Source: Ahniellaceae bacterium
GTDB lineage: Bacteria > Pseudomonadota > Gammaproteobacteria > Xanthomonadales > Ahniellaceae
Direction of reading: 5' to 3'
Assembly (NCBI GenBank): GCA_044226395.1
Contig: JBGAHD010000004.1
Location: 577,961-641,960, forward strand
DNA: 64,000 nt
Below, one piece after another: positions 34,132-56,367 of this stretch (its first letter is position 1; each line of letters opens with the position of its first letter). A program made the position numbers and the translations under genes. The notes beneath the pieces were generated by a model. That model had not been told where the DNA came from. It worked only from the letters and a program-made list of their open reading frames with translations, and made no database searches.

Positions 34132-35496
34132 ATGAACGCGCCCGACACCGGCTCACCCACGGCGGCGCCGGTGTCGGCGATCGCGGCGCTGACGTATCCG
34201 GTCGCGACCGCGGCCTTGATGGTCAGCGGCATGCTGATCTTCCTGCAGATCCTCGCGGTTGGCGTGATCCAGATCGGTGGCATGGTGCCGCGCTTCTTCG
34301 GCGCGCCGCTCGCGGGCACGATCGGCGAGATCGCGGTGAGCGCGATCGGTTATCTGGTCCATGTCGTCATTTGGATTTGCCTGTATCGCTACGGCTTCGA
34401 GGTGCTGTTTCTCAGCGCCAACGGCCGTCGTCAGCCGCCCGAAGTCGTGGGCCTGGTGGAAGGCGAGGTGGCCAATCGCCATGTCTGGCTGCAAATCGCC
34501 TTGATGTTCGCCTGCGTCATCGTGGCGCGTCACGCGGGCACCTCGATGGGCTTGATCGTAGCGGTGGCGCTGGGCGCGCTGATGCCGGCCGCGGCGATCA
34601 CGCTGACGGTGACGCAGAGCCTGGTCGCCGCCATCAATCCGCTGCAATGGGGGCGCGCCTTGGGCGTCCTCGGCCCGCGTTACGTCGCGCCCATGCTCGT
34701 GGCCATGATCATGGCCCCGCTGACCACGTTCGCCATCGACTGGATGCCGAAGACCGAGCCCTACGTCGCGGGCGTGATCATCTACTACGCGTCCGCGCAT
34801 TTCGTGGTGATGCTGGGTTTTCATCTGATGGGCCTGGCGCTGCATGCCGAGGCCGCGCGTTTGCATTTTCAGGTCGACGCGAAGACATTGCCGGCGCATC
34901 GCTTGCGCGTGGACGAAGATCCGATCCTGCGACGCGCCGAATTGCTCGCGCGCGGCCATGATCTCGCCGCCGCGGCGGCGCTGCTCGAGGATGCGCTCAA
35001 GCACGGCGGCGGCATCGCGATGCATCATCGCTATCGCGAATACCTGACGCGTCTCGGCGATCGCGATCGCCTGCGGGCGCATTCATCCACCTTCATAACC
35101 TTGCTGCGCGCCACTCACGGTGATAGACCGGCACTGAAACTACTACTGGACTGCAGGTCAGAAGACTCCACCTTCTTACCAACAGAGGTTGAAGACAGCA
35201 CTGCCCTAATCATCTCCCTCGCAAAGTCAGGGAACAACGCAGCTGCATTGTCCGCGTTTGCAGATCTTCAGAACTCTATTCCGCGTAGCACCAAGACAAT
35301 GCTCTGCGCATTGACTCTCGCACAGGAATTTCTATTCAAAAACCAACGCATCGAGGATGCAATACGCCTATCTCAACAAGCGAAGCAGACTGCAAAATCC
35401 ACAAATTGCTCCAGTCCCGAAATCCTTTCATTGATAGACGCTGTAGAAGAGCAACTCGCGAAGAATCGTGGTGAGTCTAATGAAAGTGAAGGATAA
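34132..35496 (+). CDS. polytopic membrane protein whose C-terminal ~135 aa are encoded by low-GC foreign DNA (chimeric 3' end)
   Basis: Multiple TM helices in high-GC DNA up to ~35085. The reading frame then continues into ~48% GC sequence encoding a TPR-like helical tail. Confidence 0.5.
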   Translation: MNAPDTGSPTAAPVSAIAALTYPVATAALMVSGMLIFLQILAVGVIQIGGMVPRFFGAPLAGTIGEIAVSAIGYLVHVVIWICLYRYGFEVLFLSANGRRQPPEVVGLVEGEVANRHVWLQIALMFACVIVARHAGTSMGLIVAVALGALMPAAAITLTVTQSLVAAINPLQWGRALGVLGPRYVAPMLVAMIMAPLTTFAIDWMPKTEPYVAGVIIYYASAHFVVMLGFHLMGLALHAEAARLHFQVDAKTLPAHRLRVDEDPILRRAELLARGHDLAAAAALLEDALKHGGGIAMHHRYREYLTRLGDRDRLRAHSSTFITLLRATHGDRPALKLLLDCRSEDSTFLPTEVEDSTALIISLAKSGNNAAALSAFADLQNSIPRSTKTMLCALTLAQEFLFKNQRIEDAIRLSQQAKQTAKSTNCSSPEILSLIDAVEEQLAKNRGESNESEG

Positions 35497-36523
35497 GAAA
35501 TGGCGATCAAAAAGACGAATGAAGGTCATTCGTGCAAAAGAGAGGAAACGGGCACTTAGAACGCGCCGCCAGAAAGCAAACAAAAGACGCGGCTTGGGCC
35601 TGAAGCGTCGGTCTTGGACTTTGACCTCCATAAGAGTCCAGATGCCGGAGCAGATCGCATTAGATCTTCACCCGAACCATGGAGACGTCTGCAAGACCAT
35701 TCAGGAGATAAGGTCAGCAGTTGCGAGGTCAAAACACGTCCAGCTTGACTTCTCGCGAACCAAAAAGGTGATTGCTGGAGGGATGTTAAGAGTGTATGCA
35801 GAACTACACGCACTCGCGACACTTTTCCCTCGAGTCCGATTCACATGCAAGCCACCTAAGGATGATGTTGTTGATCAAGTTCTACAGCACTTGTCCCTCT
35901 ATGATTTCTTTGGTTACACCTCGAACACCAAGCCGACCAGATCAGATGTAGTTTCCTGGAAGACTGCTTCATCAAACATAGTAGACGGTGTTTTAGCGGG
36001 TCAGCTCCTAGAGACCTATCATGGTCTGCAGAAGGAGCGCGCGAAGGCCCTCTTCAGAGGCACAACAGAAGCGATTTCCAACGTCATCTATCATGCATAT
36101 CCTGAATCGGTTCTTCCTGATGCAGCCAAATGGTGGATGTTCTGCCGAGAAGACGAGGACAAATTAGTGGTTGCAGTTTGTGACAGAGGAATTGGAATTC
36201 CAAGGTCACTGCCGGCCCGATACCCGCGAGAAGTCTGGGGTCGACTTGTCGATAGATTTAGCTTTGGGAGTCATCATCGAGACGGAGCCTTTATTCGCGC
36301 AGCTTTGGAAATGAGGAGATCTAGGACTGGCAAATCGAATCGAGGCAAGGGCCTTCACGACGTTGTTTCGGTGGCGAGATCTTGCGAGGGATCGAGAGTA
36401 TTCATATTCAGCAACAGGGCTTGCGTTACATATGATTACCTCGGAGAGAAAATCAAAGTATCTAACTTCAAGAGGTCAATTGAGGGCACGCTGATCCTCT
36501 GGTTTCTACCATTGCAGAAGTGA
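35477..36523 (+). CDS. GHKL/histidine-kinase-like ATPase (RsbW/SpoIIAB-type HATPase_c) with highly basic N-terminal tail
   Basis: K/R-rich first ~45 aa. N-box EAISNVIYHAYPE, G1 VAVCDRGIGIP, G2 GKSNRGKGLHDV, G3 GSRVFIFSN. Start ambiguous (GTG 35468, ATG 35477, ATG 35519). Confidence 0.5.
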   Translation, partial: LMKVKDKKWRSKRRMKVIRAKERKRALRTRRQKANKRRGLGLKRRSWTLTSIRVQMPEQIALDLHPNHGDVCKTIQEIRSAVARSKHVQLDFSRTKKVIAGGMLRVYAELHALATLFPRVRFTCKPPKDDVVDQVLQHLSLYDFFGYTSNTKPTRSDVVSWKTASSNIVDGVLAGQLLETYHGLQKERAKALFRGTTEAISNVIYHAYPESVLPDAAKWWMFCREDEDKLVVAVCDRGIGIPRSLPARYPREVWGRLVDRFSFGSHHRDGAFIRAALEMRRSRTGKSNRGKGLHDVVSVARSCEGSRVFIFSNRACVTYDYLGEKIKVSNFKRSIEGTLILWFLPLQK

Positions 36524-36530
36524 GATCGCC

Positions 36531-36854
36531 ATGAAAGGAAAAGAAACTACAATCAATATTGGAAAGACCTTTAACCGCTTCCCCGCTGGCAGGACGGAGA
36601 AGGATGGAATAGGGAGCGGCGAGGAGTTCAGGAAAAAGGTCCTGAGTACCGCACTTGGCGACTATGAAGTTCTTAACATCGAAATGGACGATACTCTGGG
36701 ATATGGATCTTCGTTCCTAGAAGAGGCCTTCGGCGGGCTCGTTCGTGACGGATTCTCCGCATCTGATCTACGACGCAGAATAAGAATACTGTCTGAAGAC
36801 GACTCACTTAAAGTCGAGATATTTGGGTACATTGACGAAGCGAGCAAATCATGA
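36531..36854 (+). CDS. STAS-like / DUF4325-like small protein (putative partner of the GHKL ATPase)
   Basis: 107 aa. EVLNIEMDD...GYGSSFLEEAFGGLV motif as I recall it for DUF4325-type STAS-like domains. 8-nt gap after the upstream gene. Confidence 0.45.
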   Translation: MKGKETTINIGKTFNRFPAGRTEKDGIGSGEEFRKKVLSTALGDYEVLNIEMDDTLGYGSSFLEEAFGGLVRDGFSASDLRRRIRILSEDDSLKVEIFGYIDEASKS

Positions 36855-37396
36855 GCGACCTCATCGCATGCTTCGATATCTTGATCAAGTTGGTTTCTCC
36901 AATTGTTACCTGGTCGCTCGTTGTCGCTGGGTGGGAGATCATTGGCCGCCAACAGGACCAACGCGAGCACATCAAGTTCCTTGCATCCAGCGCGCAGGAC
37001 GTCAGACAAAGGGTAAGGAGGCTAGCCGAGGATGCAGCAGAATTTCATATGAAAGAGAGATTTGAGCCTAAGCATGCTCATCTCCTTTTGCGCACCCTTA
37101 AGCAAATAGCTTCGGACATCACAGTGTTGGGCAAGGCACACCTTGCCGGGGAGAACTACTTGGGCGCGATTGTAAGCCTGAGACAAGCTGTTACCGGGAG
37201 CAACTTTTCTGAAGCATCGTTTAGCCAAAGGTCCGCAGACGACTTGACCGTAAGAAGCATCGAGATTAGCGCTGATGGCTTGGATTTCCTTCTTGCAAGA
37301 TCAATCAATGCAAAGCTCCTTGGCGGCGTCCAAAGACTTAGCATCTGGAACGTTGCGCTGTCCATGTTCAGTTCATCGTCGCCCACAAACCGCTGA
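36851..37396 (+). CDS. hypothetical membrane-anchored protein
   Basis: ATGA overlap with the upstream gene. N-terminal hydrophobic helix LIACFDILIKLVSPIVTWSLVVAGWEII followed by ~150 aa of helical soluble region. No recognisable family. Confidence 0.4.
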   Translation: MSDLIACFDILIKLVSPIVTWSLVVAGWEIIGRQQDQREHIKFLASSAQDVRQRVRRLAEDAAEFHMKERFEPKHAHLLLRTLKQIASDITVLGKAHLAGENYLGAIVSLRQAVTGSNFSEASFSQRSADDLTVRSIEISADGLDFLLARSINAKLLGGVQRLSIWNVALSMFSSSSPTNR

Positions 37397-37540
37397 GTAA
37401 ATACGATTGATGGCATTGAGTTCTTGGCTGCGGCCAATAGATGATGCTTGTTTCGCATGCGCGAACCCAAGATGAGGCCCTCCGTAGGCGGGAGGGCTCT
37501 CATTGGCATGCCGAGTTGCTATTGAAAAGTCGAAGTTGCG

Positions 37541-37909
37541 CTAGTTCGGACACCCCGCATTGATCCAATCGATCAGCGGTTGAATCTGCGCCGCCGTCCA
37601 CGGCCCCGTGCCATCGGCCGGCATCTGCCCATAGCTGCCGTTGGGCCCAAACAGCGGGCCGACGCCTTGCAGCGCCTGCACGATGTTCGAGTTCGCGGCA
37701 TTGCCCGGCACGCAGACGCGCACGGGCGGGCTGATGTTGGGCACATTGCCGGTGATGAACTGCTGATACGTGAGCACGTTCCAGAACGCGTGATGCGGCG
37801 CGCTGGCGATCGAGGTGTTGTAGTACGCGATCAACTTATTCATGTACGCCTGGAATTGCGCGTAGTTCTGGATCACGGCCGCGGCGGTATTGGCTTCGGT
37901 GGTGGTCAT
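37541..37909 (-). CDS. hypothetical protein (122 aa)
   Basis: Only the C-terminal part of listed ORF 37541..38407 has a protein-like composition (MTTTEANTAAAVIQNYAQFQAYMNKLIAYY...). The upstream part is R/S/T/P-rich frame noise overlapping the real 603-aa gene. Confidence 0.5.
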   Translation of the reverse strand: MTTTEANTAAAVIQNYAQFQAYMNKLIAYYNTSIASAPHHAFWNVLTYQQFITGNVPNISPPVRVCVPGNAANSNIVQALQGVGPLFGPNGSYGQMPADGTGPWTAAQIQPLIDWINAGCPN

Positions 37910-37922
37910 GTGGTTTCCCTGA

Positions 37923-39734
37923 TCATCGCGTGGTGGAAGGTTTGGCCGGATCGGCGGCGTCGTCGCTCTTGGCGTCCGGCTTGCCGGCGTCGTCGGCGGA
38001 CACGCCGGCATCCGGGTCGAACACCGCTTTGAAGCGCGTCTGCGACACTTGCACCTGCTGCGCGTTGGCCGCGGTTTCGGGCGCGCGCGCGGGCTGATTG
38101 CCCAGGATGAAACTGAAGTCCGCGCCCAGCGTCGACTGCGCCACGGAATGACAGCCCATGCAGCCGCCCATGTCGTACGAGGCCTTGAGCGAGCCATTGG
38201 CGTTGAGCACGTAAGCGTTCTGCTGATACAGCGTGCCCGAACTCGTGTAGTTGGTCGGCGCGCCATTGCTGGCCACGCGGCCGTTGAAGTTCTGCAGCGT
38301 GTAGTTGGTTTCGACCACGCTGTTGGCCAGATAGAACGTCGCGGCGTTATGCGGGTCGCTCGGGTTGTTGACGATCTGCGTAACGCTGAACGGATACGCC
38401 TGGACATTGACCAGCTTGTAGTACTGCCACGGCGAGTTCTTAATGCCCTTGCTTTGCGAATACGTCGCGATGGCCGCGTGCGCTTGCTGATTGGCGGTGA
38501 CGATCGGCGGCGGAATGGCGCGATCGCGCTGATTGACGCAGATGCTGCCGCCCGTGGGCACGCCGGTCTGACCGGCCGTGTTGTTGTAGAACAGATGCGG
38601 ATTGTTCTTGGTGTTGCAGTAAGGCTGACCCGCCACCACGCTCACTTGTGGATTGTTCGGATCGTCCTTGTACGTCAGCGCTGGCGAAGTCGCGGTGCCC
38701 GAGGGATTGATCACCTTGCCGTTGACGTCTTCCACGGCCACCGGCTTGCCGTTGACCACGGTCAGCAGATTGTCGGCTTGCTCGAACGTGGCGAAGACGA
38801 AGGCCGGCGCGGTCGGCGTCTTCTGAATGATGTGCAGCGCCACCAGGCCCCACACGGCTTCGCGATAGCAAGGGCCGCCGCCGCTGGCGGTCTCGTAGTA
38901 ACGCACCGTGGTCGAGTAGAAGCGCTGCGAGCTTTGCTCGGCGGCGGTCAGCGGCCGGAAGGCGGCCTTGGTCTCGATCGTGCCCGCGGGAAAATTGATG
39001 TAGGGCGACGCCGGCGGAAACGTGCCCGTGTTCACCGCCTTGATGAAGTTCTGCCGCGCCGTGCGGCGTGGCGCGTTGGCGACTTCATACCAATACTTGT
39101 TGGCCGCGACATAGGTGTACTCGACGCTGTTGGCCTTGGCCATGAAGCGGATCAATTGCGGCGCCGCGTTCTTGGGCTGCGCGGCGGCGGGATTGATGCC
39201 CGCGTACATCGAATCGAGTCCGATCTGAGTCACTTCATCGAGATTGATCCACGCCGGTTGCGGCGGCGGAGTCTGACCACTGCACGCGGGCACCACGCCA
39301 TTGGTGCCGACGCCGGCGTTGTAAACATAGCTCGGCGGCGTGTTGTAGCCATACGTCGGCGGTCCCGCGCTGTAGCCCGCGGGCGGCGACGAGGCACTGT
39401 TGGTGCCGGGGAAGATTTCGATCTTGGCGCGATACGTGTGCCACACCAGCGGCCCCGTGCCCGCGCCGAAGTTCTGCGTGGTGTCCGGCACGTCGCGCTG
39501 ACCGGCCTTGGCCGGCCAATTCAAGGCGATGAACTCCTGCCACGCGAAGGTGGCGGCGGTGGCGAGGCTGGCGTTCGGCGCGCCGCCGGGAATGTCCTTG
39601 GGCACGACGGGCGAGATAGTGATCGCGGCGGCGGCCGAAGCGTCATCGCTCGACGCGGCGGGCGGATCGTCGGCGCCAGCGATACCGGGCACGACGACGA
39701 GAGTGGCACTGAGGAATGCACGGATGAGTTTCAT
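37923..39734 (-). CDS. secreted hypothetical protein with single CXXCH motif
   Basis: Signal peptide MKLIRAFLSATLVVVPGIAGA. 603 aa, rich in G/N/P/T. CMGCH near the C-terminus. Lies 13 nt upstream of the 122-aa ORF, so a likely operon. Confidence 0.55.
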   Translation of the reverse strand: MKLIRAFLSATLVVVPGIAGADDPPAASSDDASAAAAITISPVVPKDIPGGAPNASLATAATFAWQEFIALNWPAKAGQRDVPDTTQNFGAGTGPLVWHTYRAKIEIFPGTNSASSPPAGYSAGPPTYGYNTPPSYVYNAGVGTNGVVPACSGQTPPPQPAWINLDEVTQIGLDSMYAGINPAAAQPKNAAPQLIRFMAKANSVEYTYVAANKYWYEVANAPRRTARQNFIKAVNTGTFPPASPYINFPAGTIETKAAFRPLTAAEQSSQRFYSTTVRYYETASGGGPCYREAVWGLVALHIIQKTPTAPAFVFATFEQADNLLTVVNGKPVAVEDVNGKVINPSGTATSPALTYKDDPNNPQVSVVAGQPYCNTKNNPHLFYNNTAGQTGVPTGGSICVNQRDRAIPPPIVTANQQAHAAIATYSQSKGIKNSPWQYYKLVNVQAYPFSVTQIVNNPSDPHNAATFYLANSVVETNYTLQNFNGRVASNGAPTNYTSSGTLYQQNAYVLNANGSLKASYDMGGCMGCHSVAQSTLGADFSFILGNQPARAPETAANAQQVQVSQTRFKAVFDPDAGVSADDAGKPDAKSDDAADPAKPSTTR

Positions 39735-40575: not shown

Positions 40576-41130
40576 CTAGCGCGCGTTCGCCAACTGCGTG
40601 CGCACCGCCACCAGGGCCTGTTCCTCGACCACGTCGGCGTCGGCGCTGGCGTCGATCACCACGATCGGCGGCTGCGGTTTTTCGAAACGCGCCAGCACTT
40701 CATCGACCAGATGCGGCGTGCGATCGGCGGCCAGATGATGACCGTCGGCGACATCCCGGGCCACGCGCTGACGCGCCAGTTCGGGCGAGACATCCAACCA
40801 CAGGCGCAGCACGCGCGCGCCGTAACGTTCGGCTAGGGTCTGGACGCGGCGGCGATCGCGGCGACGCGAAAACGTCATGCCGTCGATCACGCAATGCCGA
40901 CCCAAGGCCAGATTGACCTCGGTCGCGAGCATGACCGCGCGAAACGCGGCGCGTTTTTCCGTGGGCGTGTAAGCGCAATCGGGAAACAAAGCGCTACGAA
41001 TCAAGTCACGACAAACCCGGTGCAAACCGCAACGCTTGACCAGGGCTTCGGCCACGGCGCTCTTGCCGGCGCCCGGCAGGCCAATCAGCATCACCACCAG
41101 CGGCGAACCGCTGTTGTCCTCGCTCGACAT
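40576..41130 (-). CDS. P-loop NTPase (AAA_33/kinase-like)
   Basis: Walker A MLIGLPGAGKS near the N-terminus. ~185 aa. Confidence 0.6.
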   Translation of the reverse strand: MSSEDNSGSPLVVMLIGLPGAGKSAVAEALVKRCGLHRVCRDLIRSALFPDCAYTPTEKRAAFRAVMLATEVNLALGRHCVIDGMTFSRRRDRRRVQTLAERYGARVLRLWLDVSPELARQRVARDVADGHHLAADRTPHLVDEVLARFEKPQPPIVVIDASADADVVEEQALVAVRTQLANAR

Positions 41131-41216
41131 CGATCCCCATCCCCTGTCTTGCCCGCCCGACGGCGGCAGCCGATACACTACCTGGACCGCCCGTTCCGCA
41201 CGAGCACCCCTTCTGG

Positions 41217-44906: not shown

Positions 44907-47141
44907 ATGAGCGAATGGCCGCGCGCACGACTTCGAATCGGCGAGTTCGACTTCGATACCTCGAGCTTCGAACTGCATCGCGCCGGCGTGACCCAGCGCC
45001 TGCCCCATCGCCTGGGCGGCTTGTTGTGGCGTCTGGCGCGCGCGCCGGGCGAAGTGCTCGGTCGCGACACCTTGATCGCCGACGTCTGGTCCGGCCGCGC
45101 CACCGACGACGTGCTCTCGCGCGCGGTCGCCGACCTGCGCCGCTTCCTCGCCGACGATTCCCGCCAGGCGCGTTACATCGAGACCGTGCCGAAGATTGGC
45201 TATCGCCTGATCGCCCCGGTGCGCGACCTCGCCGAATCGAGGACACCCATCGATTCCAGGACACCCCTCGAAGCGAACTCCGATTCGGGGACACCCATCG
45301 AATCCGGAACCACCCGCAACTTCGGGACACCCACGGATCTGGGTCTCGATTCCAGGACACCCACGGATCGACGCCAGCCCAAGCCGCGCCAATCCAGGAC
45401 ACCCACCAAACGCCAACTCGCGCTCGCCATCGGCCTGACCCTGCTGGCCTCGCTCGCCGCGTGGCGCTGGTCGACCTCCGATTCGCCACGCACCGACCCC
45501 AGCCCCCTCGGCCTCTCACCACAACGCCTCACCACCGAACGTCCGCTCACCGCCGACCCCGGCTGGGAACTCCACCCCAGCCTGTCGCCCGACGGCAGCC
45601 TCGTCGCCTTCGCGCGCATGGACAAGTTCGGCGCGAGCAGCACCCTGGTCGCGCGCTACGTCGACGGCAGTTCCGAACGCGAGTACGCCGAGCCCGCCGG
45701 CTGGAATCTGCATCCCGCATTCTCGCCACGCGGTCAGCAACTGGCCTTCATCCACGTCGGCGCCGACGGCGATTGCGAAGTGCGCCTGCGCCCCGTGCAT
45801 GGCGATCCTTCCGTCGTGGTCGGTCGCTGCGCGGGACTCAACACCGCCGTCGCCTGGCGCGCGGACGGCGAGGCGCTGACCTTCACCGCGCCCGCGGACG
45901 ACGATCACGATCCCGGCCTTGTCGAACTCACGCTCGCCACGCGCGCGATCGAGCCGCTCACCCAACCGGCGCGCGGCGCCGGGCCCGACAGCGATCCGCA
46001 GTACGTGCCCGGCGGCGACGAGATCAGCTTCGCGCGCGGCACCGGCAGCGACGCGCGCCTGCTCGCCGTCACGCGCGACGACGCGCATCGCGAACGCACG
46101 CTGTTCGGCGGCGGCAATCTGATCCAGGGCCACGCGTGGAGCGCCGACGGCGCGCAAATCATCATGGCCACCGACTGGCCCGGCTATCGCGCGCTGATCG
46201 GCATCGATCCGCGCACGCTCGTGGGCAACACGCTCGGCGCGCGCGGCGCGCGCAGTCCCACGACCAACGCGCGCGGCGACTGGGCCTACGAGATCGCGCG
46301 TTACGACGCCAATATTCATCGCGTCGATTTTCGCGACGACTCGGTCGACGAACACGCGCTCGTCGCCAGCACGCGCTACGACGCTTCGATCGCGCTGTCG
46401 CCCGATGGTCGACGTCTCGCCTTCGTCAGCACGCGTCTCGATCACGAATCCATCTGGATCGTCGACACCGCCGGCGGCGACGCGGTGCGCGCGCCACTGC
46501 CCGACACCGGTCGCTGGGTGCGCCCCGCGTGGTCGCCCACGGGCGATGCGCTGCTGGTCACGCGCTATCTCGACGACATCACCACCGCGCATCGCCTCGA
46601 CCTAGCCAGCGGCCGCGCGCGCGAACTCACCGCGCTGGGCCGCGCGTTCTACGCGCAATATCTCGAAGACGGCGAACGCTTCGTGTTCGCGCGACTCGAA
46701 GCCACGGGCTATCGCCTCTTTCTCGCGCCGGCCGACGGCTCGGTCGAACCCGAAGCGCTCGACATCGCTGGCGCCGTCGGCGAGTTCTACGCCGGCGATC
46801 ACTGGCTCGCCTGGCAGCGTCGCGACGACAACACGCTCGCGGTCTACGATCTGCGTCGTCGCGCGCTGACGCCCTTGCCCGATGACTGGGCCACCGCGCG
46901 CCCCGAGGACTGGCGCTTGCAAGGTCATCGCCTCTACCGCATCGTCGACGACGAAGGTCAAGCTCCGCGCCTGCGGCGCCTCGATCTCGAAGACGGCCAG
47001 ACCCACGAGTGGCCCGCGCGCGCCACGCGCGCGACGGCGCCCGCGCTCGCGGTGGCGCCGGACGAAAGCTTCGCGCTGTTCGCCAGCCTCGACGATCTCG
47101 AGGTCGATCTGATGTGGGTGCCCGCCGCGCGCTCGCCCTGA
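44907..47141 (+). CDS. CadC/ToxR-like winged-helix transcriptional regulator fused via TM helix to periplasmic TolB-like beta-propeller
   Basis: N-terminal trans_reg_C-like region (FDFDTSSFELHRAGVTQRLPHRLGGLLWRL ... ETVPKIGYRLIAP). Linker with S/G-R-T-P repeats. TM helix LALAIGLTLLASLAAW. TolB-like repeats (SLSPDGSLVAFAR, AFSPRGQQLAFIHV, ALSPDGRRLAFVS). Confidence 0.7.
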   Translation: MSEWPRARLRIGEFDFDTSSFELHRAGVTQRLPHRLGGLLWRLARAPGEVLGRDTLIADVWSGRATDDVLSRAVADLRRFLADDSRQARYIETVPKIGYRLIAPVRDLAESRTPIDSRTPLEANSDSGTPIESGTTRNFGTPTDLGLDSRTPTDRRQPKPRQSRTPTKRQLALAIGLTLLASLAAWRWSTSDSPRTDPSPLGLSPQRLTTERPLTADPGWELHPSLSPDGSLVAFARMDKFGASSTLVARYVDGSSEREYAEPAGWNLHPAFSPRGQQLAFIHVGADGDCEVRLRPVHGDPSVVVGRCAGLNTAVAWRADGEALTFTAPADDDHDPGLVELTLATRAIEPLTQPARGAGPDSDPQYVPGGDEISFARGTGSDARLLAVTRDDAHRERTLFGGGNLIQGHAWSADGAQIIMATDWPGYRALIGIDPRTLVGNTLGARGARSPTTNARGDWAYEIARYDANIHRVDFRDDSVDEHALVASTRYDASIALSPDGRRLAFVSTRLDHESIWIVDTAGGDAVRAPLPDTGRWVRPAWSPTGDALLVTRYLDDITTAHRLDLASGRARELTALGRAFYAQYLEDGERFVFARLEATGYRLFLAPADGSVEPEALDIAGAVGEFYAGDHWLAWQRRDDNTLAVYDLRRRALTPLPDDWATARPEDWRLQGHRLYRIVDDEGQAPRLRRLDLEDGQTHEWPARATRATAPALAVAPDESFALFASLDDLEVDLMWVPAARSP
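45240..45406 (+). repeat. in-CDS tandem repeats of the GGACACCCA core (encode D/E-S-R/G-T-P linker repeats)
   Basis: Units GAGGACACCCATCGATTCC, AGGACACCCCTCGAAG, GGGGACACCCATCGAATCC, GGGACACCCACGGATCTGG, AGGACACCCACGGATCG and AGGACACCCACCAAACG. Confidence 0.6.
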
Positions 47142-50813: not shown

Positions 50814-51839
50814 ATGCGAAATTCGAGATCGCTTTACCCCTGTGCCTTGCTGCTTCTGCTTTCGCTCGTCGACATACGAGCCGTCCTCGCCGCCGAGGAA
50901 ACCTGCGGCCTCGTCGCCGATACCTTCCACGATGGCTTCGAAGCCGGCGGCCTGCCGCCGATCACGCCGCCGAATCCTCAAGCTTCGCTCGCGCTGACGC
51001 TCGATGAAGGCTTCGATGGTCGCATCGTCAACGCCCGACGCCTCGCGCTGAGCGGCACCTTCGACGGCCCGCCCACCACGGGCGTCGGCGCGCGCGATCG
51101 GCCCGCGCGACTCGTCGGCCGTCGCTGGCTCATCCCCGATGTGCCGCTCGATCCTGGACCCAACGCCATCCGCGTCGCCGCGACCACGATCAACGGCGCG
51201 AAGATCGAACGCACGCTCACCATCATCCGCGATGACACGCTGCCGCCCGCGCCTGAGTGGCAAGCCACCGCGGCACCCGGCTTCGCACCCATCGGCGCGC
51301 GCTTCACCCTGAGCTTGCCGGCCGAAGTCAGAGCGCAGCGCCTGCGCATCGACTTCGATGGCGATGGACGGGATGAGGTCGACACGCGGCAAGTGGAAAG
51401 CGTCTTCACCACGCGCTTCGACGTGCCGGGGTTCTATCGCGCGCGGATCATCATCGATCGCGTCGCGGGGCAGGCACCGACGCCAATCACGCTGACTACG
51501 CCGGTGCTGGTCGAACACCTCGACGAAGTCCGCCTGAGCCAATGCGCGGCCTTCGGCGCCATGCGCGGCGCGCTGATCGCGAACGATATCCCTGGCGCGC
51601 TGAAAGCGCTGCACCCGCGCCTGCAAGCCGACTTCACGACGCTGTGGAATTCCCTCGGCACGCGACTGCCCACCGTCGCGACGCAACTGGGCACGCTGGC
51701 CAGCGGCACAGTCTCCAGCGATGGCTTCGCCGAATGGCTGATCCTGCGACCCGACCCCGGACACACCGGCGAGTTCATGGGCTATCGCGTCCAGTTCGAT
51801 CGAGGCAACGACGGCGTGTGGCGCATCGGGAGCATGTGA
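50814..51839 (+). CDS. secreted hypothetical protein
   Basis: GGAGG RBS. Signal peptide MRNSRSLYPCALLLLLSLVDIRAVLA. No recognisable family. Confidence 0.45.
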   Translation: MRNSRSLYPCALLLLLSLVDIRAVLAAEETCGLVADTFHDGFEAGGLPPITPPNPQASLALTLDEGFDGRIVNARRLALSGTFDGPPTTGVGARDRPARLVGRRWLIPDVPLDPGPNAIRVAATTINGAKIERTLTIIRDDTLPPAPEWQATAAPGFAPIGARFTLSLPAEVRAQRLRIDFDGDGRDEVDTRQVESVFTTRFDVPGFYRARIIIDRVAGQAPTPITLTTPVLVEHLDEVRLSQCAAFGAMRGALIANDIPGALKALHPRLQADFTTLWNSLGTRLPTVATQLGTLASGTVSSDGFAEWLILRPDPGHTGEFMGYRVQFDRGNDGVWRIGSM

Positions 51840-51841
51840 GC

Positions 51842-52777
51842 ATGCCGCTTCAGTTGCGCGTGTTCCTCGCGGTCGTCGGAAGCGGCGTGGCGGTGCTGAT
51901 CGTCTACAGCATCGTCACGGGCCCGCTGTTCCATCCGGATCCGTTCGAGGGTCGGGATGTCCTTCAATTCAGCGGAAAGGTTCGCGAGCAAGGCACCGGC
52001 AAGCCCATGCCCGGTGTCTTCGTGGTGGTGAACATTTCGTCGTGGCGAGCGGCGCCGTTTGGTAATGGGGCTTCATCGTGCCTCGATGGCAGCCAAGTGG
52101 TTCGCACGGATTCTCGTGGCGACTATCGCGTCGCGGTCGACTGGTGGCGGCATGGTTGGCCGGTACCAAAGAACGTGGATGTGCAACTGAACATCTATCT
52201 GCCGAGCGAGAAGCGCTTCATGGTGGTTGGTGAGTCTGCCATCTATTCCGCGAGGCGACGACAGTCGTTTGAGTTGAAACCCGACGCTCGGCCGCTCGTT
52301 GATCGCTTGCGCATGCTCGACAACGTGCTCGACTACAACTGCGAAATGACTGCCTTTGGAGAAACGTATCGACCAATGGCTCGCGCAGTTCACGATGAAG
52401 TCTGGCGAGGAGTCTGCGTCAACGACGTGGCGGTGACCTTGGATGAACTGATGCTGGCGAATAAGGTGATGGGCCACGCAGGATTCTATTTCCGCTCGCT
52501 CTACACGCGAGAAGACGATGCCCAGTTCCACGCATCGGAGGACGCATTTCTGGCGATGTTGCCAGAGGCCCGAAGCTGGTCGGAGCCTCGGCTCGACGAT
52601 CCGCCGCATGTGAGCGCGCCTGTCCCCGATGCCGTGCGCCGTTTGCTCTGTGATTCGCTCCGTCCGGAGCTCTTGTTCCCGAAGAGGAGATCGCGTGATG
52701 TCTTGGAAAATACCCATAATCCTCAAGTGCCTGATCGCCCTATTGCTATTGAGCCCCGTAAGCGGCTGGACGTATGA
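51842..52777 (+). CDS. membrane-anchored hypothetical protein with carboxypeptidase-regulatory-like beta-sandwich segment
   Basis: Start immediately after the upstream stop (ATGTGAGCATG). N-terminal TM helix. GKVREQGTGKPMPGVFVVV...TDSRGDYRV resembles the CarboxypepD_reg fold. Tentative. Confidence 0.4.
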   Translation: MPLQLRVFLAVVGSGVAVLIVYSIVTGPLFHPDPFEGRDVLQFSGKVREQGTGKPMPGVFVVVNISSWRAAPFGNGASSCLDGSQVVRTDSRGDYRVAVDWWRHGWPVPKNVDVQLNIYLPSEKRFMVVGESAIYSARRRQSFELKPDARPLVDRLRMLDNVLDYNCEMTAFGETYRPMARAVHDEVWRGVCVNDVAVTLDELMLANKVMGHAGFYFRSLYTREDDAQFHASEDAFLAMLPEARSWSEPRLDDPPHVSAPVPDAVRRLLCDSLRPELLFPKRRSRDVLENTHNPQVPDRPIAIEPRKRLDV

Positions 52778-55259
52778 GGTCGACACGCATGCGCTGATTA
52801 CGGCGAATGCGTACGAGCAGTCGCAAGTCGCGACAGATTCGGAGATCGCGGCCCGTCTTGGTTGGGCACGCTACCCGAAGGAGTCCCCCTTTAATCTGCC
52901 GAATGGACTCGGACACTTGAGGTTCGAGCGCGCGTATTTAGATGTAAGTGCGCCCTACTGGGAGGGAAGGGGCCAAGGCGAAGCATTCATGCGATTTCCC
53001 TTCGATGACTACGAACTTGTTCGATTTCCTGGAGACACGCGAACGGTCGCCAATCGCGCTTCCGAGGTACGCGCCTGGTTCATTCGCGGCGCCATTCGCG
53101 AAGACGATCTGCCTCAGAAGTACTATCAACTGGGCGAGCCCAGACCCGATGCCGATAGGTTTGGAGAAGTTGTCCGTGTCTTTCATCACTTCTACGACCC
53201 CGCCAATGATCGAGGACTTACGCCAACCGGCATCGGAATTCTCGGTTGGATCTGTGAAAGCCTGCCTGACCAGATTCCCTCGGGACACTGCGTGAATGCG
53301 ACGGACTGGGCCATGGGCACGCCCGACGAAACCGTGGCGAACGACGCGCAATCACCTCCCGATCGCGAACGACGCAATCACTTCACCTGGGCCGACGCGC
53401 GAGAGGCGATGTGGTGCGGCTTGATCAGCCGCACGGTGCCTTCCAACCCCGAAGAAGATGCCGTGCGGAGACGCTACTGTTGGGCCACGATGGCGCTGTC
53501 GCTCGGCCATGTCCTGCATCTGCTTCAGGACCTCTCGCAACCACAGCACACTCGCAATGATCGACACAATCCGCCGTTGGGTCAGGTCTGGGATTTCGTC
53601 AAGGCGACTGACATGTCGCGCCGCACTTATGAATCGTATACGAACTGGCTGGCGACCAAAGGGCGAGATGTCGGCGCCACGGGACTGGAAGGCGAGTCAT
53701 ATCGCGAGTACTTCACGGCCAACAGCACGCTCGAAGTACCGCCTACTAGCGGCTATCCCATTCCTCGCTTCACCACGCCGATCGACTACTTCACGACACG
53801 CCGCTTGGATGCCGACATCCGACAGCGCCGCGGGCTCGCGGATTTCAGCAACCGCAACTTTGTTTCCGAGGGAACGCAGTTCTCGAGCTACGATCTTCCT
53901 GGCGGGTCTGACCTTCGCGTCGAACAGTCCCCGCCCCTGCAGATCGGCAGCCGCGTTTTTCGCGAGGAGCGCAAGGTCTGGGATGTCATCGACACCGTGG
54001 CGCCGGGATACCGAGACCCGGTTCTCGCGGCCTACAACGGGCACTTACCCTTGTCGCTCACCAGCTTATGGCGTGACTTCGATGCCCGCATCGGAGAAAG
54101 CAAGGTCGTCATTCCATTGGCCTACTATCGTGCGCATGCTTATGTGCTACTGCCCCGCGCCGTGGCCTACTCCACCGGCCTCATCGACTTTTTCTTCCGC
54201 GGCAAGCTGGAAGTGAGCGACCCGACGCAAGGCCTGGTCGCCGCGATCGATCAAGGCGTGCCGCATCGGATGGTGGACGGTTACCCTCGTCGCTTGGACA
54301 ACAATCAGATCATGGGCTTCACGCGGCTGCGGCTGACGGTACGCAATACGACCGCCGCGATCACGGAGACGGGCACGGGTCGCGTGTTGCCGCAAGGCAT
54401 GGCCAATGGATTGATCATCGCGGTGGCGCGCTATCACCGCAATCCGTGCTATTTGCCAAGCCTTCAAGGGGAATGGGTCAAGCCCGATGGCAATGCGCCC
54501 GCCAGTATTCCCAGCGGAGCGTGCACGCTGGATCAGACACGCACCAACTACGAGGAAGCTTCGATCTCGAAAGCCTTCCTGGTCAACAGCGAGATTCCCA
54601 GCGATCGCCCGCGCTCCTATGCCTTCGACTTCTCGCTGGATCCGATTCCGATCAATGCCACGGATTTGTTCGTGCAGGTCGTCTATCGCGGTCAGCTGGG
54701 CGCGGAGCGCGATGGCATCGCGGTGGGGCGCATGGACTTGCCCGAGCCTTACTACTTCCCATTCCTCAACGGCACGGACTTCGTGTCATGGCACGGAACG
54801 TGGCGAGAGACTGTTCCGGGCGATCGCGACAACACGTCGCCCGAACTCGTGAAAACGCTTCTTCTGGGCTGGAACGAGGATGTCAACTCGCCGCTCACCG
54901 GCGTGATCGCGACCACGCGCGTGCCGCTGCCGCCGAAACGATTTGTCCGCTTTGCCCTGATAGGACGAAGCGGCACCGGCAAGCTGCGAACGGACTTGAC
55001 GACGGAATTCCACGGCAGCCTGACGCTGAACTTACCCAGTCCGATGCGACTGGGCACGATTCGCCAGGCGGAGACCGAGGAGATTGGACCCGACGACTAT
55101 TCGCCAGTCCCCTTGGTTATCGATCGCGGCGTCATTGGCAACATCAACTGGTGGTATTCGAGAAGGGATGGCGATAGACCCGATCGGCCGCGCTCGGAGT
55201 TGCCGACGGTCGACCCAAATGCCATGCCAGAAGTGATCACGATCTCGTCGCCGTATTGA
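52698..55259 (+). CDS. large secreted protein with N-terminal zinc-dependent phospholipase C / P1-nuclease-like domain
   Basis: Signal peptide ends ...SPVSG, with a mature N-terminal Trp (WTYEVDTHALI). HxxxDxxQPxH-type motif HVLHLLQDLSQPQH as in the zinc PLC/S1-P1 superfamily. GAGGAGA RBS. The region is lower in GC (~56%) than its surroundings. Confidence 0.5.
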   Translation: MSWKIPIILKCLIALLLLSPVSGWTYEVDTHALITANAYEQSQVATDSEIAARLGWARYPKESPFNLPNGLGHLRFERAYLDVSAPYWEGRGQGEAFMRFPFDDYELVRFPGDTRTVANRASEVRAWFIRGAIREDDLPQKYYQLGEPRPDADRFGEVVRVFHHFYDPANDRGLTPTGIGILGWICESLPDQIPSGHCVNATDWAMGTPDETVANDAQSPPDRERRNHFTWADAREAMWCGLISRTVPSNPEEDAVRRRYCWATMALSLGHVLHLLQDLSQPQHTRNDRHNPPLGQVWDFVKATDMSRRTYESYTNWLATKGRDVGATGLEGESYREYFTANSTLEVPPTSGYPIPRFTTPIDYFTTRRLDADIRQRRGLADFSNRNFVSEGTQFSSYDLPGGSDLRVEQSPPLQIGSRVFREERKVWDVIDTVAPGYRDPVLAAYNGHLPLSLTSLWRDFDARIGESKVVIPLAYYRAHAYVLLPRAVAYSTGLIDFFFRGKLEVSDPTQGLVAAIDQGVPHRMVDGYPRRLDNNQIMGFTRLRLTVRNTTAAITETGTGRVLPQGMANGLIIAVARYHRNPCYLPSLQGEWVKPDGNAPASIPSGACTLDQTRTNYEEASISKAFLVNSEIPSDRPRSYAFDFSLDPIPINATDLFVQVVYRGQLGAERDGIAVGRMDLPEPYYFPFLNGTDFVSWHGTWRETVPGDRDNTSPELVKTLLLGWNEDVNSPLTGVIATTRVPLPPKRFVRFALIGRSGTGKLRTDLTTEFHGSLTLNLPSPMRLGTIRQAETEEIGPDDYSPVPLVIDRGVIGNINWWYSRRDGDRPDRPRSELPTVDPNAMPEVITISSPY

Positions 55260-55437
55260 CGTATCGGCCTCTCGGAAAAAAGACCCACCCGGAACCACCC
55301 GGGTGGGCTACCCAAAAGTCACACACTCGCCGTATGCCTGTTTCACGCTGCCGGACGGCGCGGCTGGCAGCGATCCATGCCTTCGGTGTCGGCGCGCGCG
55401 GGCGATTATTCGATCGCCTTCGCGCGCGCGCGATGAA

Positions 55438-55974
55438 TCAGTTCTCGCAAGCCTTCACTTCGATCGTGCCGGTGATGCGATCGATGGGCGGCTTGCATTC
55501 GAGTTGCGAGATCTTGGTGCCGGCTTCGGCGCGATCCTGGCAGTACATGCCAGTGGCTTTCATGCCGAACTGATCGAGATAGGTCTTGGCCAGTTGCTCG
55601 GCGGCTTGCTTGTGCTCGGCCGGAATCAGGCCAGCCACGCGATCACGCGCGCGCTTGTAGTCGCCCTTGCCCGACTCGGCCGCGACGACGTACCACGCAT
55701 AGGCCTTCATGCCGTCGGGCTGCGTGCCCTGACCAAACAGATACATGCTGCCCAGCGCGAATTGACTGGACTTGTCGCCCATGCAGGCGTTGCGCTGATA
55801 CAGCGGCAGCGCGGCATCGTAGTCCTCGCGCTCGTAGGCGCGATGACCATCGCGCAGCAACAAGCGATATTCCTGGAATTTCATGCGTTCGAAGCCGGGC
55901 GCCAGCGCGTTGGCGTCGCGCGCCATCAGCGTGGAACCCAACACGATGGCCACGATCCAGGTCACGTACTTCAT
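55438..55974 (-). CDS. Sel1-like repeat (TPR-family) secreted protein
   Basis: Signal peptide MKYVTWIVAIVLGSTLMA. Sel1-type repeats (SQFALGSMYLFGQGTQPDGMKAYAWY). Confidence 0.6.
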   Translation of the reverse strand: MKYVTWIVAIVLGSTLMARDANALAPGFERMKFQEYRLLLRDGHRAYEREDYDAALPLYQRNACMGDKSSQFALGSMYLFGQGTQPDGMKAYAWYVVAAESGKGDYKRARDRVAGLIPAEHKQAAEQLAKTYLDQFGMKATGMYCQDRAEAGTKISQLECKPPIDRITGTIEVKACEN

Positions 55975-56367
55975 CTCTTGCTCTCCCATGTCCCAGTTAG
56001 TTGCCCGTGCGTCGCGCGTGCTTGGTCACGACGCTCGCGCAGGCTAGTGAATGCAACCGCGCCTTCGTGAGTGAAGGAAGTCCGTAGGTCTTCAGTCACG
56101 ATGCTTCCTCACGCTGGGCGCGCGTGTCACGTCTTCTCCTTGGATGCGGCGAAGGTCGATTTGGTTACATCGACGATCACGCGCGTAGTCGGAGCGACGC
56201 GCGCTCGCGAAAGTTCCGAACGGCTCGCGCCACGAGACGCGGTCGGCGCGCGCGAGCGATCGTCGCCGACCTGATTCGATGCGCAAGAAGCGCGAGGAGT
56301 GACTCACCCGATCACACCTGGGCACAATAGCCGCGCTCGCAAGATCACTTTGCCTAGGTAGGAAGTC

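Follow-up and report, generated by a model that had tools for sequence, protein, structure and literature searches.

A low-GC segment of an Ahniellaceae genome that completes a membrane-protein gene in register and carries an apparently undescribed kinase/STAS cassette

Background

The described system closest in design to the genes treated here is VapKSC, a toxin-antitoxin operon of three genes that protects against a phage. Its products are, in order, a STAS-GHKL kinase; a small STAS protein, in which one serine is invariant and the C-terminal helix blocks the toxin; and the toxin itself, a VapC PIN nuclease. In the model put forward for it, single-stranded DNA activates the kinase, the STAS protein is phosphorylated, and the toxin is thereby freed (Chambers et al., EMBO J 2026; PMC13373217). 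In the CapK/CapS pair, the kinase is a STAS-containing GHKL protein with an N-terminal helix-turn-helix (HTH) domain, and its STAS substrate bears a C-terminal winged HTH domain and represses the downstream operon (PMC13373217). DUF4325 genes were found coupled to PIN.4 VapC-like genes in a survey (PMC5499597), and in the Francisella phage KIRK a DUF4325 protein is encoded between a 293-aa protein (best hit in Marinobacter phage AS1) and a small membrane protein by Fhv_0046-0048, which lie beside a repressor and an integrase and have the same gene order as the cassette described below (PMC7924643). The subject of this report is a low-GC segment of about 2.45 kb in the genome of an Ahniellaceae bacterium (assembly GCA_044226395.1, contig JBGAHD010000004.1), situated within a stretch of 64,000 nucleotides (contig positions 577,961 to 641,960, forward strand) that was analysed as a whole and is called the window; all coordinates are window positions unless another locus is named. 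The segment begins inside a membrane-protein gene, the end of which it supplies, and continues into three genes, here called K, S and T. It is likely that this segment consists of the end of a donor's gene plus the K-S-T cassette, that it formed an in-register mosaic with the resident gene, and that the cassette specifies a membrane effector controlled by a kinase and a STAS protein.

The cassette resembles VapKSC in its order, a STAS and GHKL kinase without HTH being followed by a small STAS protein, which has an invariant Ser/Thr and ends in a short C-terminal segment, and then by a putative effector. It also resembles VapKSC in its surroundings, both lying on mobile DNA in the neighbourhood of further defence or toxin-antitoxin genes. 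It differs in that K carries an extra Lys/Arg-rich N-terminal helix, which is unmentioned for VapK; the likeness is one of architecture and fold. With CapK/CapS the cassette shares a GHKL kinase that has a STAS domain and a downstream STAS-domain substrate, but S has no domain for DNA binding, and what follows the cassette is not an immune operon but a convergent host gene. The anti-sigma pairs SpoIIAB/SpoIIAA and RsbW/RsbV are similar in combining the kinase fold with STAS folds, whereas the cassette has no sigma factor, its kinase bears a STAS domain of its own, and it is borne by phages and plasmids.

The membrane-protein gene has two kinds of precedent. The mosaic pbp genes of Streptococcus and Neisseria are products of interspecies recombination, in which, as here, segments of different ancestry have been joined in register to give a full-length product; the gene reported here has parents of much greater divergence (protein identity of about 20-30% to any known relative, and 67% versus 48% GC), and its foreign block adds three genes. 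Some integrative elements, among them e14 and phage 21 at icd, carry a surrogate for the 3' end of the gene into which they integrate, and the locus is like them in that foreign DNA starts inside the 3' part of a gene and its codons complete the frame, but no integrase, convincing attachment-site (att) repeat or displaced native end was found in the intervals specified below, and the surrogate is long and highly divergent.

Results and Discussion

Composition and extent of the foreign segment

The low-GC segment is horizontally acquired foreign DNA that extends from 35081 to approximately 37400-37545. A sequence-only reading of the window had described a sharply bounded low-GC island at 35085-37545, and the discontinuity is evident by three measures. 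In 300-nt windows, GC falls from 0.64-0.69 outside the segment to 0.45-0.53 at approximately 35100-37500 and then returns to at least 0.60; when the whole window is taken in 1-kb steps, the segment is the single stretch of about 50% GC, the remainder varying from 0.58 to 0.71. By a two-state likelihood fit, the composition changes at 35081 and at 37587, the second of these positions being imprecise. The GC content of third codon positions (GC3) is 0.855 in the flanking thioredoxin gene and 0.862 in the convergent gene on the right, compared with 0.503 in K, 0.491 in S and 0.593 in T, and it changes within a single open reading frame (ORF, 34132-35496) from 0.846 in codons 1-318 to 0.489 in codons 319-454. 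The foreign origin proposed in the sequence-only reading is thus upheld by a drop from about 66% to about 49% GC overall and by a GC3 step from 0.85 to 0.49 inside one ORF; codon reading confirms that this ORF crosses the left junction in frame, the changepoint at 35081 puts the left edge inside the membrane-protein gene, and the 136 codons of low GC3 agree with the earlier estimate that about 135 residues are foreign-encoded. The features of the locus are as follows.

34132-35085, + strand: native 5' two-thirds (residues 1-318) of the membrane-protein gene, DUF4013-like/TPR family; GC3 0.846; profile columns 15-292
35078-35089, + strand: left junction, with the crossover at about 35080-35085 in the codons GCG CAT TCA; changepoint 35081; no indel at profile columns 292/293
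35086-35496, + strand: foreign 3' third (residues 319-454) of the same gene, C-terminal TPR domain of another lineage; GC3 0.489; 51.5 bits to the family profile
35480-36523, + strand: K, 347 aa; a Lys/Arg-rich helix at the N-terminus precedes a STAS-fold domain and a GHKL (Bergerat-fold) kinase/ATPase domain, as assigned by structure prediction and fold search
36531-36854, + strand: S, 107 aa, STAS-like DUF4325 protein (Pfam PF14213, 1.8e-10, above the cut-off); invariant motif GYGSSFLEEAFGG; C-terminal segment short and conserved
36851-37396, + strand: T, 181 aa, proposed effector, with one N-terminal hydrophobic helix ending in G-W-x-V/I and a helical region with R-x-A-x-T-x-x-x-F; a homologue occupies the same position in every other locus examined
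37397-37540, no strand: intergenic spacer containing the right edge of the foreign segment; GC rise at 37440-37520
37541-37909, - strand: convergent host gene, 122 aa, outside the segment; GC3 0.862

The right edge lies between 37397 and 37545 according to gene layout, and GC climbs from about 0.50 to 0.62-0.65 at 37440-37520. A G+C-rich hairpin (approximately 37474-37499; fold z-score -2.2) is located here between the two convergent genes.

An abrupt change of composition, in a genome that has no close relatives for comparison, might also be produced by an assembly chimera or contamination, with a low-GC block misjoined from another organism. Both junctions are present in a separately assembled Logan contig that is 100% identical over 10,904 bp, which argues against misassembly although the same reads may possibly underlie both assemblies. 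A random misjoin would not be expected to preserve both frame and register within a conserved protein family, as the left junction does, and the block is small, with host-type DNA on both sides in one contig. A chimera is the least probable of the explanations considered here, and is hardly to be credited.

A mosaic gene rebuilt in register

The membrane-protein gene is a mosaic of 318 native and 136 foreign codons that encodes a full-length, family-typical product. An exhaustive search with the protein identified 479 cluster representatives at E ≤ 0.001 (best identity 33%), none of which matches the tail only. The alignments of these relatives extend well beyond residue 318, nearly all of the matches listed being 400-445 aa in length, and members of the family match DUF4013 weakly over the membrane part and TPR at the C-terminal end. 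Against a family profile of 119 members and 416 positions, from which the window protein was excluded, residues 17-437 of the 454-aa product align with positions 15-410 at 300.8 bits, ungapped at residues 318/319; the N-terminus is about 25 residues longer than those of the relatives, so the product is of normal length for the family. The tail of 136 residues, aligned alone, scores 51.5 bits at profile positions 294-411, compared with a mean of -2.3 and a maximum of 5.3 bits for 500 shuffled tails, and the head stops at column 292, which makes the junction exact to the residue; in the DNA, the first codon of the low-GC type is TCA at 35083. The ungapped alignment and the score of the tail indicate that the gene was not broken, but rebuilt in register with a homologous end. 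Loss of the native 3' end of the gene, considered likely in the sequence-only reading, is supported.

The two parts of the gene also differ in ancestry. When identity to each of the 119 family members was determined separately for the head columns and the tail columns, the Spearman correlation between the two was 0.055 for the window protein, lower than for any of the 119 members treated in the same way as controls (median 0.45, minimum 0.065). The ratio of tail identity to head identity, 0.77, is at the 1.7th percentile, the tail being unusually distant relative to the head, and the eight nearest relatives by head and the eight nearest by tail have one protein in common. Head and tail identities that are uncorrelated, together with the GC3 step, are the grounds for calling the gene a mosaic. 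The tail has about 20-28% amino acid identity to family members, and the relatives nearest to it are encoded on contigs of 67-74% GC, so that they give no pointer to a low-GC donor.

The flanking repeat and the mode of insertion

A first possibility, corresponding to the sequence-only reading, is a simple cassette insertion with a target-site duplication that truncated the gene, its last 136 codons being fortuitous read-through. The sharp GC edges and the 12-mers that flank the segment, CGCATTCATCCA (35078-35089) and CGCATTGATCCA (37556-37567), would fit such an event. The tail, however, is no chance extension of a truncated gene, being homologous to the C-terminal domain of the family and exactly colinear with it (51.5 bits, as against at most 5.3 when shuffled), and a chance open frame of 136 codons is in any case unlikely in DNA of about 48% GC (approximately (61/64)^136, or roughly 0.0015). 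Were the stretch from one repeat to the other excised, the remaining gene would have no C-terminal domain and would run into the convergent gene.

The repeat itself is near chance level. The imperfect 12-bp direct repeat exists as reported, its copies being the sole two matches to the pattern in the window, but its interpretation as a target-site or att duplication is not supported: the match is close to chance, and the right copy belongs to a host gene, where it is coding sequence of the convergent gene and encodes W-I-N-A five codons before the stop. Matches of 11 of 12 nucleotides at a spacing of 2460 bp occur in 2.7% of random window pairs if the positions may vary by ±30 nt, in 7% at ±50 nt and in 29% at ±100 nt; at least two matches to the degenerate 12-mer pattern appear in 33 of 100 shuffles of the window; and the 3.3 kb around the segment contain 43 families of direct repeats of at least 11 nt, the 12-bp pair being outside the 20 largest. 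The repeat is probably coincidental, and at most a microhomology. Simple insertion is accordingly very improbable, ranking barely above a chimera.

A second possibility is that the segment is the remnant of a site-specific integrative element, such as a prophage or island, that targeted the 3' end of the membrane-protein gene and restored it with a surrogate end, in the manner of some phages at icd or tRNA genes, and from which the integrase and most other genes were later deleted, leaving cargo beside one att site. Integrative elements of this type are familiar, the cassette is carried mostly by phages, at accessory-gene positions, and the left copy of the imperfect repeat that brackets the segment falls exactly on the changepoint. 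Known surrogates are short stretches that scarcely differ from the target, unlike the 136 codons found here with their low identity to the family, and the near-chance repeat with its right copy in host coding sequence argues against att sites. The earlier observation that no integrase or transposase is present holds for the genes scanned around the segment: no recombinase was found among the genes called at 30.7-41.6 kb, among the ten longest high-GC3 ORFs at 19.8-31.6 and 41.2-48.6 kb (the smaller ORFs 40576-41178 and 46602-47006 being left out), or among four further ORFs at 48.6-55.3 kb (the outer parts of the window being left out), so that none is known within about 13 kb of the segment. 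The ten ORFs at 19.8-31.6 and 41.2-48.6 kb are ordinary chromosomal genes that include kdpA, a kdpB-type P-type ATPase gene, kdpD, and genes for an amidohydrolase and a Ser/Thr kinase. When the six reading frames of 30.7-41.6 kb were searched with the family profile (ORFs of 50 aa or more), no displaced native 3' end or second copy of the gene was detected. No tRNA or other RNA gene that might have been the integration target is near the segment, the sole tRNA gene being at 9.6 kb, 25 kb away, and the search for terminal inverted repeats gave only short matches at chance level. A decayed integrative element is therefore improbable, but with a non-lethal regulatory role for K-S-T, discussed below, it is one of the two main rivals to the favoured reading.

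The cassette genes

K begins within the end of the mosaic gene, its start overlapping the stop by 17 nt. In fold searches, the kinase domain of K matches SpoIIAB and its STAS-type domain matches RsbV and anti-sigma antagonists, and alignment shows that the catalytic residues are conserved. Only the structure-based search revealed the STAS domain, which Pfam did not match and for which the hhalign probability with the S profile was 2.5%; the comparison of K with PDB sequences yielded a marginal match to the RsbW N-box and nothing else. Residues 1-45 of K (35480-35620) are conserved in its family, very rich in Lys and Arg, and predicted to form a single long helix, which could bind nucleic acid.

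The invariant motif of S reads G-Y-G-S-S-F-L-E-E-A-F-G-G, and S60, S61, E96 and Y100 are invariant in nine homologues; a serine of S is predicted to be phosphorylated. S matches phrog_5816 at 8e-13 over positions 338-439 of the 441-position profile, that is, at its C-terminal end, which suggests from the alignment that the kinase and the STAS protein may be fused as one polypeptide in some phages. The PHROG families matched by K and by S have no known function.

T has no match in Pfam, NCBIfam, PADLOC, PHROG or PDB, and neither T nor 11 of its homologues contains a PIN domain or any other Pfam domain. Word-indexed searching returned no homologues of T, and they were recovered instead from the loci that were fetched. 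Sequence searches of PDB with K, S and T gave no meaningful match, and no model of PADLOC-DB 2.0, the 2023 catalogue, matched K, S, T or the membrane protein at E ≤ 1.

Structure prediction, fold search and alignment thus assign to K and S the first two architectural elements of VapKSC, the STAS-GHKL kinase and the small STAS protein, but in place of the third, a VapC-like PIN nuclease, is T, a single-pass membrane protein without PIN domain. The cassette is not VapKSC; it plausibly works like VapKSC with a different, membrane-bound output, and by analogy it is apparently an undescribed membrane-effector variant of the kinase/STAS-controlled toxin-antitoxin design.

The same genes might instead form a regulatory partner-switching pair that acts on a membrane-anchored partner in the physiology of the phage or plasmid, for example in lysogeny or lysis timing, with no killing of the host. 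A GHKL kinase with a STAS protein is the classic design of anti-sigma factor and antagonist, of which the RsbW N-box match is reminiscent, and T has no toxin signature. CapK/CapS is moreover purely regulatory (PMC13373217). On the other side, S and T contain no sigma factor or DNA-binding domain, no sigma factor gene is in or near the cassette at the loci inspected, and an isolated, low-GC cassette that relocates freely, occurring in chromosomes, in plasmids and at many unrelated positions in phages, behaves as accessory conflict genes typically do and core regulators do not. A purely regulatory role is unlikely on balance, though it is the strongest of the alternatives; an effector held in check by kinase and STAS protein is preferred.

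K-S-T as a mobile module

K-S-T is a fixed, strictly linked module found on mobile elements. Of 79 viral contigs in IMG/VR that encode K, 76 have room downstream, and in all 76 S and T follow directly on the same strand. Phage and prophage locations of the module include a prophage replication region, the interval between the large terminase and portal genes, the position after the tape-measure gene in Acinetobacter baumannii, and the vicinity of the Cro/CI genes of Marinobacter phage AS1; on plasmids of Vibrio, Acinetobacter and Leptospira it adjoins MazEF, RelE/ParE and HEPN-MNT genes. At two loci the third gene is present but had been missed by gene calling. The GC content of the cassette is 5-20 points below that of its flanks in all eight other loci measured. 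No description of this form was found in the searchable literature, subscription journals being outside that scope.

Sharp low-GC islands formed by the cassette were also observed in Piscinibacterium candidicorallinum (locus L090, 7001-8876; 0.51 versus 0.66), 38 nt downstream of glnS, and at locus L003 (8001-9900; 0.46 versus 0.66), adjoining a divergent hisS; at both, the GC drop begins beyond the flanking gene, not within it, and no recombinase is nearby. The Vibrio vulnificus replicon NZ_CP015514.1 (locus L176, 2513-3235) has a DUF4325 gene without upstream K, followed by small unknown genes and adjoining a gene for an ImmA/IrrE peptidase, from which it appears that the STAS-like protein also occurs in other pairings. 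A PIN partner was looked for beside a Vibrio plasmid DUF4325 gene that has no K upstream, and was not found.

Proposed history and mechanism

An in-register junction points to recombination between two homologous genes rather than to insertion of a self-mobile element, and it is from this junction that we infer the route. The donor would have had a copy of the membrane/TPR gene directly upstream of K-S-T, an arrangement suggested by the overlap of 17 nt between the stop of the tail and the start of K and by the composition that tail and cassette share. Crossover would have occurred at the equivalent codon, within a conserved '...L-R-A-H' motif, so that the resident gene stayed whole, by homeologous or microhomology-mediated recombination, either at uptake or in a later deletion between the resident and incoming copies. 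Ordinary homologous recombination being unlikely at such divergence, a microhomology-based event is easier to envisage, and selection for an intact protein may have contributed. The cassette may now be transcribed by read-through from the promoter of the host gene.

The function of the cassette can be proposed, by analogy with VapKSC and the anti-sigma partner-switching pairs, as a mechanism of four steps, each of which we infer. S would bind the membrane protein T and keep it inactive; a signal of infection or DNA damage would activate the STAS-GHKL kinase K; K would phosphorylate the invariant serine of S; and S would then release T, whose action at the membrane would arrest growth or keep the phage out.

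Several considerations weigh against this history and mechanism. Genes of 67% and 48% GC are too dissimilar for ordinary RecA-dependent recombination, which leaves the route to an in-register junction uncertain. Searches yielded close relatives of neither host nor donor, and hence both the state before insertion and the arrangement in the donor are unseen, and a membrane/TPR family gene adjoins none of approximately 95 other K-S-T loci. TPR repeats can look alike without sharing a common position, although exact colinearity speaks against that here. For the cassette, sequence comparison with PDB gives no match to CapK, VapK or VapS and PADLOC gives no hit, T has no recognisable toxin domain, and kinase activity, binding of S to T and protection against phage are predicted properties.

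Host neighbourhood and other observations

The word-indexed protein search with the membrane protein returned only the protein itself, and the first genome scan for relatives of the locus gave no match. A genome scan with the thioredoxin gene (trx) identified homologues that are at best 46-49% identical, in a Lysobacterales metagenome-assembled genome and in Stenotrophomonas daejeonensis. S. daejeonensis provides the only fetched locus that also matches a flanking gene, and its different gene content between trx and the DUF4442 gene indicates that this interval is variable.

The minus-strand genes of host composition at 37541-39734 (122 aa and 603 aa) have no match in Pfam or NCBIfam. The product of the 122-aa convergent gene ends in a '...WINAGCPN' motif, which resembles the C-terminal motif of planctomycete-type cytochrome-like (PSCyt) domains. 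Elsewhere in the window, a second and milder low-GC stretch at 52000-56000 (0.58-0.62 versus approximately 0.66), with ORFs of 876 aa (52629-55259, + strand) and 411 aa (51542-52777, + strand) that belong to no Pfam family, may be another acquired segment.

Conclusions

If the proposed history is correct, the left junction is an unusually clean case of a gene whose parts, derived from two very distant relatives, were put together in register, with a composition step sharp enough to fix the crossover to a few bases, and the locus is a concrete case of a small cassette without recombinase entering a chromosome without destroying its target gene. If the proposed function is correct, it suggests that the kinase/STAS switch shared with VapKSC is a module to which a membrane effector can be attached. 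The triad is absent from the 2023 defence catalogue, and VapKSC itself was characterised only in 2026. More tentatively, as a view that may well prove wrong, K-S-T could be an undescribed, widespread conflict system of phages and plasmids, a membrane-effector sibling of VapKSC in which the kinase/STAS switch serves as a general, swappable trigger, and the chimeric host gene may show how cassettes without recombinases spread, carried with a piece of a neighbouring conserved gene.

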